The notes under the pieces are model-generated. The model was not told the origin of the DNA. It ran no database searches and saw only the letters and a program-made list of their open reading frames with translations. A DNA stretch of 64,000 nt from Candidatus Uhrbacteria bacterium (GTDB lineage: Bacteria; Patescibacteriota; Patescibacteriia; UBA9934; GWF2-40-263): NCBI GenBank assembly GCA_016188425.1, contig JACPHX010000003.1, positions 18,606 to 82,605 on the forward strand. Direction: 5' to 3'. The position numbers were made by a program, and so were the translations under genes. How positions within the stretch are numbered: position 1 is the first letter of the stretch; every line of letters begins with the position of its first letter. Of the stretch, positions 1,546 through 1,645 are shown one piece after another.

Positions 1546-1645
1546 AGGAGAGGTTTCAAGGGTCGCAAGGGAAGCAAGGGTTTCAAGGGCGTTCAAAAAC
1601 GAATGCCCTTGATGCTCTTGCGACCCTTGAAACCCTTGCGACCTT
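1546..1645. repeat. Long imperfect inverted repeat built from CAAGGG/CCCTTG hexamer units, in the groES-groEL intergenic leader. Copy 1 of a dispersed element; see 62642-62732.
   Basis: Left arm ggtttcaagggtcgcaagggaagcaagggtttcaagggc, 14-nt loop ending cgaat, right arm gcccttgatgctcttgcgacccttgaaacccttgcgacc. A near-identical core (caagggc-loop-cgaatgcccttga) recurs at about 62.7 kb. Confidence 0.6.

Follow-up and report, generated by a model that had tools for sequence, protein, structure and literature searches.

The stretch analysed here, 64,000 nucleotides of Candidatus Uhrbacteria bacterium DNA (assembly GCA_016188425.1, contig JACPHX010000003.1, positions 18,606 to 82,605; hereafter the window), contains two copies of a foldback element whose arms are built of CAAGGG and CCCTTG units. 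Copy 1 lies between groES and groEL, and copy 2 lies between valS and its divergent neighbour. Both loci seem, with moderate confidence, to be two copies, since diverged, of one foldback repeat without a gene, specific to this genome and similar to a REPIN (a doublet of repetitive extragenic palindromes, REPs) or a MITE (miniature inverted-repeat transposable element), and not a regulator of groEL and valS. The element in the window is best read as one intact copy (copy 1) and one decaying copy (copy 2). Intergenic hairpins having arms of 7-9-nt tandem repeats, with a genome-specific motif, are a common class in Candidatus Uhrbacteria. In relatives, such arms also surround a gene for a four-helix-bundle protein, which hints at the origin of these repeats.

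Both copies are intergenic and consist of a left arm, a loop and a right arm (Table 1); the common architecture described for the two sites in the initial annotation is thereby borne out. On the plus strand, the left arm of copy 1 reads aggagagg-TTTCAAGGG-TCGCAAGGG-AAGCAAGGG-TTTCAAGGG-c and is followed by the loop gttcaaaaacgaat and the right arm g-CCCTTG-atg-CTCTTG-cga-CCCTTG-aaa-CCCTTG-cga-CCTTG. In copy 2, the left arm reads aaaCAGGG-TCGCAAGTG-TTTCAAGTG-TCTCAAGGG-TAGCAAGGG-c, followed by the loop acgtacttccgaat and the right arm g-CCCTTG-aaa-CCCTCA-cca-CCCTTC-CCCTTG. The repeat unit is NNNCAAGGG, 9 nt long: a 6-nt core and a 3-nt spacer, the spacers being mainly TCG and TTT in alternation. 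Tandem Repeats Finder gave a period of 9 with an 18-nt super-period and 3.7-4.4 copies per arm, so that the hexamer periodicity first assigned to the arrays has to be replaced by one of 9 nt. The core is kept between units, and the spacers vary and are mostly unpaired.

This arrangement is far from what chance would give. Two CAAGGG units 9 nt apart (CAAGGGNNNCAAGGG, at most one mismatch) were matched 10 times against 0.25 expected, and eight of the ten matches fall inside the two elements. The pattern CAAGGGC-N10-18-GCCCTTGA was matched three times, always within the two elements, and never in 100 shuffles. Absence of the core from all 100 shuffles supports the earlier view that these structured intergenic elements, of the REP or MITE kind, form a family that is not due to chance.

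The minus-strand RNA of copy 1 folds at -55.5 kcal/mol (z score -9.1) into an interrupted duplex of about 36 bp. Several pairing registers are possible, because the arms are tandem repeats. Folding of the copy 2 RNA gave a z score of -3.6. The substitutions in the arms of copy 2 are not compensated by one another: the left arm has CAAGTG in two units, and the right arm has CCCTCA and CCCTTC. The sequence of both copies is identical across three independent assemblies or samples, SRR12113420-22, and therefore no variation in unit number was seen. At the gathering threshold of Rfam the element was unmatched, and within the window only two tRNAs passed. Permissive Rfam searches gave the element only sub-threshold matches to miRNA precursors, that is, to generic long hairpins.

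Copy 1 occupies the 115-nt intercistronic spacer between groES and groEL. Since the promoter and the CIRCE-like operator (controlling inverted repeat of chaperone expression) precede groES, and no promoter was detected within the spacer, copy 1 is intercistronic and does not form the leader of the operon. The groEL start has no Shine-Dalgarno sequence. Such a sequence is used by 3 of 27 genes, judging from the 25 nt upstream of 27 start codons of the window genome and its prophage, and the leaders upstream of these start codons contain little G (10.6%) and are often rich in pyrimidines or TTAA. A Candidatus Uhrbacteria protein matches GroEL with 100% identity, and the next relatives show at most 81%.

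The context of copy 2 is different: a divergent promoter region, as against the intercistronic site of copy 1. TTGCCA-17-TATCCT is the only promoter-like site detected for valS, and since it separates copy 2 from the ATG, copy 2 is probably upstream of the valS transcript. In this promoter-divergent spacer copy 2 is decaying, is probably outside the valS transcript and shows no evident function. The valS promoter-like site ends 9 nt before the ATG (62603-62640), and this position suggests that the valS mRNA would be leaderless or nearly so. The gene divergent to valS is read as DHH-like, though no Pfam family is on record for its product.

Relatives were collected as three loci found by exact-protein look-ups and 80 further metagenomic loci found through the O-antigen-ligase-like gene preceding groES; this Uhrbacteria set and the window make up about 0.88 Mb. 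A search of 82 Uhrbacteria-like loci, about 0.8 Mb in all, gave no copy of the CAAGGG family. The proposal of a conserved groEL and valS regulator therefore fails by the refuting condition set in the initial annotation itself, since related genomes retain no CAAGGG copies. The groES-groEL spacer is only 1-33 nt long, with neither an element nor a Shine-Dalgarno sequence, in 33 of 49 junctions. In the other 16 it is 68-315 nt long, and most of these long spacers contain strong hairpins or arrays of tandem 7-9-nt units, the motif differing in nearly every genome (Table 1). The unpaired flanks left by these hairpins sum to 14-28 nt, and those of copy 1 to 21 nt (8 + 13), lengths comparable to those of the empty spacers. 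It should be mentioned that the spacers of relatives can shrink to 1-4 nt. In the locus L157, a 1.9-kb insertion flanked by inverted ATCTACNA arrays lies between groES and groEL (13355-15323). It contains three genes, for an unknown 136-aa protein, a 290-aa open reading frame (ORF) and a 149-aa ORF, and is a foldback with cargo in its "loop".

The hairpins are not confined to this spacer. Outside ORFs, the 0.88 Mb from Uhrbacteria contained 59 arrays of period 6-12, compared with 13 in 0.86 Mb of DNA from unrelated genomes; the commonest period in the Uhrbacteria set was 7, followed by 8 and 9. An inverted partner within 700 nt was present for 23 of the 59 non-coding arrays, against 7 of 66 arrays inside ORFs. 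One clearly dispersed family is an element of about 140 nt (GCGGGATTTGCGAATAACGAAT...) in L148, with four near-identical copies within 20 kb of one Uhrbacteria contig, one of them in the groES-groEL spacer. The flanks of these copies are unrelated and show no target duplication, and the copies include one compensatory pair. L140 and L158 have one family in common, the GAGTCGTT family is present in L124/L144, L128 and L148, and several motifs can coexist in one genome. Contexts of 31 hairpins obtained by greedy ORF calling were unreliable (shadow ORFs beat short genes) and were not used.

Outside this lineage, a GTDB scan with CAAGGGNNNCAAGGGC-N8-20-GCCCTTG gave mostly chance matches in high-GC genomes, with no Uhrbacteria among the matches listed. 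A few real 9-nt-periodic (GCGCCAAGG)n hairpins in other phyla were among these matches. Two Anaerolineales copies have flanks of about 60 nt in common and therefore belong to a dispersed element. A pattern of three CAAGGG units also fits coding repeats of the Gly-X-Y or Lys-Gly-X type (L014). Two arrays of the window, AGGCGCAGG at 4263-4301 and CCTGCGCCT at 5125-5154, 820 nt apart, were considered as an inverted pair and rejected: they are the reverse-complementary, 9-nt-periodic, Pro/Ala- and Glu/Gln-rich coding tails of YidC and NusA. As side observations, otherwise unrelated hairpins repeatedly show CGAAT, CGAAC or TTCGAA, either in the loop or as the arm unit, and in L064 a four-helix-bundle ORF (4639-4999, minus strand) is preceded by two (CAGGTGA)2-armed foldbacks.

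In the Uhrbacteria loci, the arrays are also linked to a gene. All four complete genes of the TIGR02436 / PF05635 family ("23S rRNA intervening-sequence protein", Avd-like) are bracketed by inverted heptamer arrays. A fifth gene, in L135, lies at a contig end with an array on its visible side. On this one contig, the same heptamer, TAGCGTA, is used by the arms of the gene-less groES-groEL hairpin and by the arm of the four-helix-bundle cassette. In L121 and L135 the proteins resemble each other and the arm motif is shared, and the genomic sites differ; in L120 and L131 the proteins are 81% identical, and both arms and site agree. In the RNAs of the L120 and L162 cassettes, the arrays are predicted to pair into a closing stem of 30-40 bp with the ORF in the loop. 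Counting the plasmid-borne homologues described below, the cassettes often lie inside operons: between UPF0102 and nusA and, on the plasmids, between cas6 and cas4, cas10 and cmr3, and the subunits of ribonucleotide reductase.

The gene association extends beyond the Candidate Phyla Radiation (CPR), being seen in Patescibacteria, Cyanobacteria and Alphaproteobacteria. Twelve plasmid-borne homologues were inspected, mostly from Nostocales but also from Azospirillum and Gemmatirosa: arrays were inverted at seven, direct at two, one-sided at two and lacking at one. Proteins of the Avd family bind nucleic acid, and we know of no catalytic activity for a four-helix-bundle protein between such arms. 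No paper linking TIGR02436 genes to flanking heptamer arrays was found in the searchable literature, which is incomplete.

Table 1. Coordinates of the two foldback copies, their neighbouring genes and the related elements. Positions refer to the window unless a locus (L) is named.
Feature	Position	Strand	Sequence or remark
Copy 1 foldback	1549-1645		left arm 1549-1590, loop 1591-1604, right arm 1605-1645
Copy 1 left arm	CAAGGG at 1557, 1566, 1575, 1584		four NNNCAAGGG units and one degenerate unit
Copy 1 loop	1591-1604		14 nt, gttcaaaaacgaat
Copy 1 right arm	units at 1606, 1615, 1624, 1633; CCTTG at 1642		CCCTTG/CTCTTG units
Copy 1 RNA stem in groESL transcript	1644-1551	minus
Copy 2 foldback	62642-62732		same orientation as copy 1
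Copy 2 left arm	CAGGG 62642; CAAGTG 62650, 62659; CAAGGG 62668, 62677		five units
Copy 2 loop	62684-62697		acgtacttccgaat, 3' end CGAAT
Copy 2 right arm	CCCTTG 62699; CCCTCA 62708; CCCTTC 62717; CCCTTG 62723		degenerate
Core common to both copies	1584-1612 (copy 1); 62677-62705 (copy 2)	plus	CAAGGGC-N9-CGAATGCCCTTGA
groEL	1-1537	minus	runs off window; ATG 1537-1535, 13 nt downstream of hairpin base
groES (Cpn10, 96 aa)	1653-1943	minus	stop codon 8 nt upstream of hairpin base in transcript
groESL control region	1970-2033	minus	separate from copy 1, upstream of groES
groESL sigma-70-like promoter	2033-2004	minus	TTGACA-18-AAGAAT
groESL CIRCE-like operator	1996-1970	minus	CTAGCACTC-N9-GAGTGCCAA
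valS	59954-62602	minus
valS promoter-like site	62640-62612	minus	TTGCCA-17-TATCCT, between copy 2 and valS ATG
381-aa gene divergent to valS	62769-63914	plus	starts 36 nt past copy 2 right arm
L177 spacer hairpin			GAGGTT/AACCTC, period 9
L160 spacer hairpin			CGAAC
L148 spacer hairpin			CGAAT-rich
L121 spacer hairpin and second hairpin in groES 5' untranslated region (UTR)			TACGNAA and CCGAAT units; z -8.1 and -9.8
L140 spacer hairpin			TACAGAT
L159 spacer hairpin			TTAGCTT
L135 spacer hairpin			TAGCGT
L193 spacer hairpin			GCTTACA
L148 element copies	3266-3387, 4152-4277, 11522-11660, 19066-19187		one in groES-groEL spacer
L120 cassette	5040-5500		(AAGAAGC)n, ORF, (ACTTCTT)n
L131 cassette	2161-2667		(AAGAAGC)n, ORF, (ACTTCTT)n
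L121 cassette	12400-12989		(GTAGCGT)n, ORF, (CTACACG)n
L162 cassette	7771-8204		(GGTTATA)n, ORF, (CTATAAC)n
L135 fifth TIGR02436 gene	4860-5139, contig end		(TAGCGTA)x7 on visible side
Plasmid loci with inverted arrays	L326, L328, L329, L331, L332, L333, L335
Plasmid loci with direct arrays	L330, L334
(GCGCCAAGG)n hairpins	L007:2864-2926, L064:2124-2186, L060:679-729, L107:6308-6376		Anaerolineales, Zavarzinella, another genome
CGAAT/CGAAC/TTCGAA sites	1600-1604, 62693-62697; L127:13845-13866; L121:7382-7468; L148; L160; L177

The gene-less hairpins are most simply read as a miniature form of the four-helix-bundle cassettes, in the relation that REPINs have to REPtrons or MITEs to IS elements, and they are read as having been acquired, or having grown in place, independently in different lineages. 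Slippage within the arrays and copying between the arms would be plausible routes of growth and spread. Judging from its position downstream of the promoter, copy 1 should be transcribed within the groESL mRNA. The insertion might be tolerated there because the element folds out of the transcript, so that stop and start stay neighbours: with the insert folded back, the groES stop and the groEL start would be kept about as near as in the 1-33-nt spacers. In a genome without Shine-Dalgarno use, termination-reinitiation coupling could survive such an insertion. The long duplex may also be a substrate of RNase III or a barrier to exonucleases, and any resulting change in the GroES:GroEL mRNA ratio would be incidental and not dedicated control.

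Several observations weigh against a miniature mobile repeat. Neither a TIGR02436 gene nor a CAAGGG-armed cassette was found in about 69 kb of the source genome, and therefore the link of the CAAGGG family to the cassettes is drawn by analogy. The unit in the window is 9 nt, as against about 7 nt in all cassette arms seen. There are only two CAAGGG copies in the same 69 kb: the source genome beyond the window (Logan contigs, a further 4.5 kb) added none. Target-site duplications are absent at both copies, and no mobility mechanism was found for them. A search for an RNase III signature in the sequence in hand, which is a partial genome, was negative. In addition, hairpins of independent motif occur in a third of the groES-groEL spacers, and selection could act there.

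Among known systems, the heptamer arrays of Cyanobacteria and Xanthomonas seem to be the closest in architecture. The short tandemly repeated repetitive (STRR) sequences of Cyanobacteria are said to go back to Mazel and co-workers in 1990. In Xanthomonas, GGGAATC forms 70-75 convergent array pairs per genome, and GGGGA(C/T)T is likewise intergenic in Nostoc (Rehm et al. 2015, PMC4692102); the function of these arrays was described as "still to be elucidated" (PMC4692102). As in those heptamer arrays, the units are short, tandem and intergenic, the arrays are often opposed and able to form a stem-loop, and length and sequence vary between close relatives. The tandem non-coding units of 6-9 nt, the opposed pairing and the over-representation in the lineage that mark the STRR and GGGAATC types were all found. 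The differences are in the unit of the window (9 nt with the 18-nt super-period, against 7 nt), in the CPR host, and in the motif: Uhrbacteria genomes each have their own motif or motifs and no dominant heptamer, and the window copies so far number two.

Similarity to the REP family is partial. A REPtron is a gene for a REP-associated tyrosine transposase (RAYT) flanked by inverted REPs, and REPINs are inverted REP doublets. The REP family and the foldbacks alike are dispersed extragenic hairpins, each with a "master" copy in which the same repeats lie on either side of a protein-coding gene, and both are tolerated inside operons, where stem-loops affect mRNA stability. Unlike REPs, the arms in the window are internally tandem-repetitive, and the gene enclosed in relatives encodes a four-helix-bundle protein. 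A REP is a palindrome of 20-40 nt, and its tag GTAG/CGTC is absent from the ends of the window elements of about 95 nt. REPs are present in tens to hundreds of copies per genome, and two copies of the window element were seen in the roughly 69 kb of the source genome. No RAYT (Y1_Tnp) was found in a Pfam scan of 40 window ORFs at about 10.5-55.5 kb, or in the pre-computed Pfam calls of the Logan contigs L119 and L322, which cover the window ends; this Pfam coverage excludes a few short ORFs and 55.7-58.8 kb. More generally, no RAYT, reverse transcriptase or Nop/Tas candidate was found in the window. MITEs and the Foldback transposons of eukaryotes, which have inverted arms of short tandem subrepeats, resemble the element as gene-less foldbacks with subrepeated arms, and the L148 family adds multiple near-identical dispersed copies. 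They differ from it in that here no target-site duplication is visible and no transposase gene has matching ends. The inverted arms are present, but no direct repeat borders either copy or any of the four L148 copies. No CAAGGG arrays were found at or near the ends of the IS256-family (Transposase_mut) gene of the window (8638-9936), which lies beside tRNA-Leu (8201-8286).

ORF-bearing intervening sequences of 23S rRNA (S23p / TIGR02436) occur in Leptospira and Coxiella, and their stem is a substrate of RNase III. Their closing stem with a four-helix-bundle ORF in the loop is the predicted topology of the L120 and L162 cassettes. An ORF between the arms was found in the relatives L120, L121, L131 and L162, and in the predicted folds both the window elements and the cassettes form a closing stem. 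Unlike the rRNA sequences, the window elements are without an ORF and outside rRNA, the cassettes lie between protein-coding genes, and the stems are tandem-repeat arrays. There is no four-helix-bundle ORF between the window arms, where the loop is 14 nt, nor did a hidden Markov model built from five relatives' proteins find one in the whole window. The element is therefore classed as an intergenic short-tandem-repeat foldback, because its architecture is like that of the heptamer arrays, the REP tag, a RAYT and the target duplication of MITEs were not found and it has no ORF of the intervening-sequence type.

The foldbacks and the TIGR02436 genes might together be one widespread system similar to REPtrons and REPINs, in which a small Avd-like gene in the loop of a stem built from 7-9-nt tandem arrays inserts into operon spacers and rRNA, can be excised by RNase III and spawns gene-less hairpins. 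This wider proposal is tentative, and clearly less probable than the repeat nature of the two copies. If true, a single system would explain both the cyanobacterial STRR sequences and the Xanthomonas heptamer arrays and would give the four-helix-bundle family a role. If the association is causal, heptamer repeats of the STRR type, rRNA intervening sequences and the TIGR02436/Avd-like family become linked and jointly testable. As a regulator of groEL and valS the finding would be ordinary, and that reading fails; the wider pattern matters more. The tiny genomes of CPR bacteria still carry many long hairpins of 7-9-nt tandem units, even in essential operons, and such elements can mislead annotators of CPR genomes into calling leaders, small RNAs or terminators.

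The alternative that survives best is a selected intercistronic element of mRNA processing or stability, in which RNase III cleavage or an exonuclease block rebalances or uncouples the groES and groEL mRNAs. REP-type stem-loops (REPs and bacterial interspersed mosaic elements) stabilise mRNA in operons of E. coli. The expansion of 16 of 49 spacers, mostly with hairpins of unrelated motif, suggests repeated independent acquisition, and with z scores of -8 to -10 the stems are highly stable; L121 bears a second hairpin in the groES 5' UTR, and the compensatory pair in the L148 family points in the same direction. Nevertheless, such a processing element is considered unlikely: two thirds of the relatives lack it, the same families also occupy unrelated sites, and copy 2 is decaying. 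Enrichment at the groES-groEL spacer was not demonstrable. The RNAfold metric of the longest unbranched hairpin, applied over all loci, was non-specific (2020 regions), and a stricter ungapped hairpin detector recovered 2 of about 12 known hairpins.

Less probable again is a protein-binding array on DNA or RNA with one site per 9-nt unit, bound for instance by a nucleoid protein or an Avd-like four-helix-bundle protein. A kept 6-nt core with varying, mostly unpaired spacers would be natural for such sites. Moreover, four-helix-bundle genes have such arrays on their flanks, and the arm motif goes along with the type of protein. This reading is difficult to reconcile with a motif that differs in nearly every genome and with several motifs within one genome; no candidate protein was found in the window, and a 9-bp spacing mismatches the helical repeat.

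A gene-specific leader or RNA thermometer that governs translation of groEL, and of valS, upon heat is very improbable. It was suggested by the setting, a heat-shock operon with the base of the stem 13 nt from the groEL start. Compared with thermometers of the ROSE and fourU types, the stem (about -55 kcal/mol) is far too stable and leaves the start codon outside; the genome uses no Shine-Dalgarno sequence that could be occluded, and no relative conserves the element. Copy 2 is probably outside the valS transcript, the contexts of the two copies are unlike, and there is no Rfam match at the gathering score. In addition, the operon already has its heat control in the CIRCE that precedes groES. 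The element is dissimilar to the CIRCE/HrcA inverted repeat at a groES promoter (TTAGCACTC-N9-GAGTGCTAA), and the CIRCE-like site is separate from it. The thermosensor role that the initial annotation raised for consideration, given groEL, thus finds no support.

A G-quadruplex-forming repeat has been proposed in the case of the heptamers GGGAATC of Xanthomonas and GGGGAYT of Nostoc (PMC4692102), and the plus-strand left arm of copy 1, G3-N6-G3-N6-G3-N6-G3, fits the usual pattern. Its probability here is slighter still: a duplex with the complementary arm, at a distance of 14 nt, is far more favourable, one G-tract is broken in the groESL RNA (CAAGAG), and most sister families (TAGCGTA, AAGAAGC, CGAAT, TACAGAT) are not G-rich. 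A guide-RNA array of the TIGR-Tas or CRISPR type, considered because the array is of short period and its host belongs to the CPR, where TIGR systems are common (PMC12045711), has a negligible probability and is ruled out by architecture: TIGR arrays, which lie beside a Nop-domain gene, are made of units of about 36 nt in which two repeats of 8-12 nt alternate and the spacers are 9 nt long (PMC12045711), whereas here the unit is 9 nt, the variable part 3 nt and the arms inverted, with no Nop or Cas gene in the Pfam scans of the window.

The window also contains an apparent integrated siphovirus-like prophage (14018-55500) adjoining tRNA-Val. Prophages are seldom reported in CPR genomes. Its genes encode a serine recombinase (14037-15680), a helix-turn-helix protein, RecT, an S-adenosylmethionine synthetase, PD-(D/E)XK nucleases, a DnaC-like ATPase and a ParB-methylase. 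Further genes encode the large terminase, an SU10-type capsid protein, the tape measure, Dit and an amidase that bears an SLH domain. Within the prophage lies an island of defence genes (28454-37969): a type I restriction-modification system (an HsdM/S fusion and HsdR), an AGS_C sensor-domain protein, an AAA_21/DUF4435 (AbiEii-like) protein and a PD-(D/E)XK nuclease.

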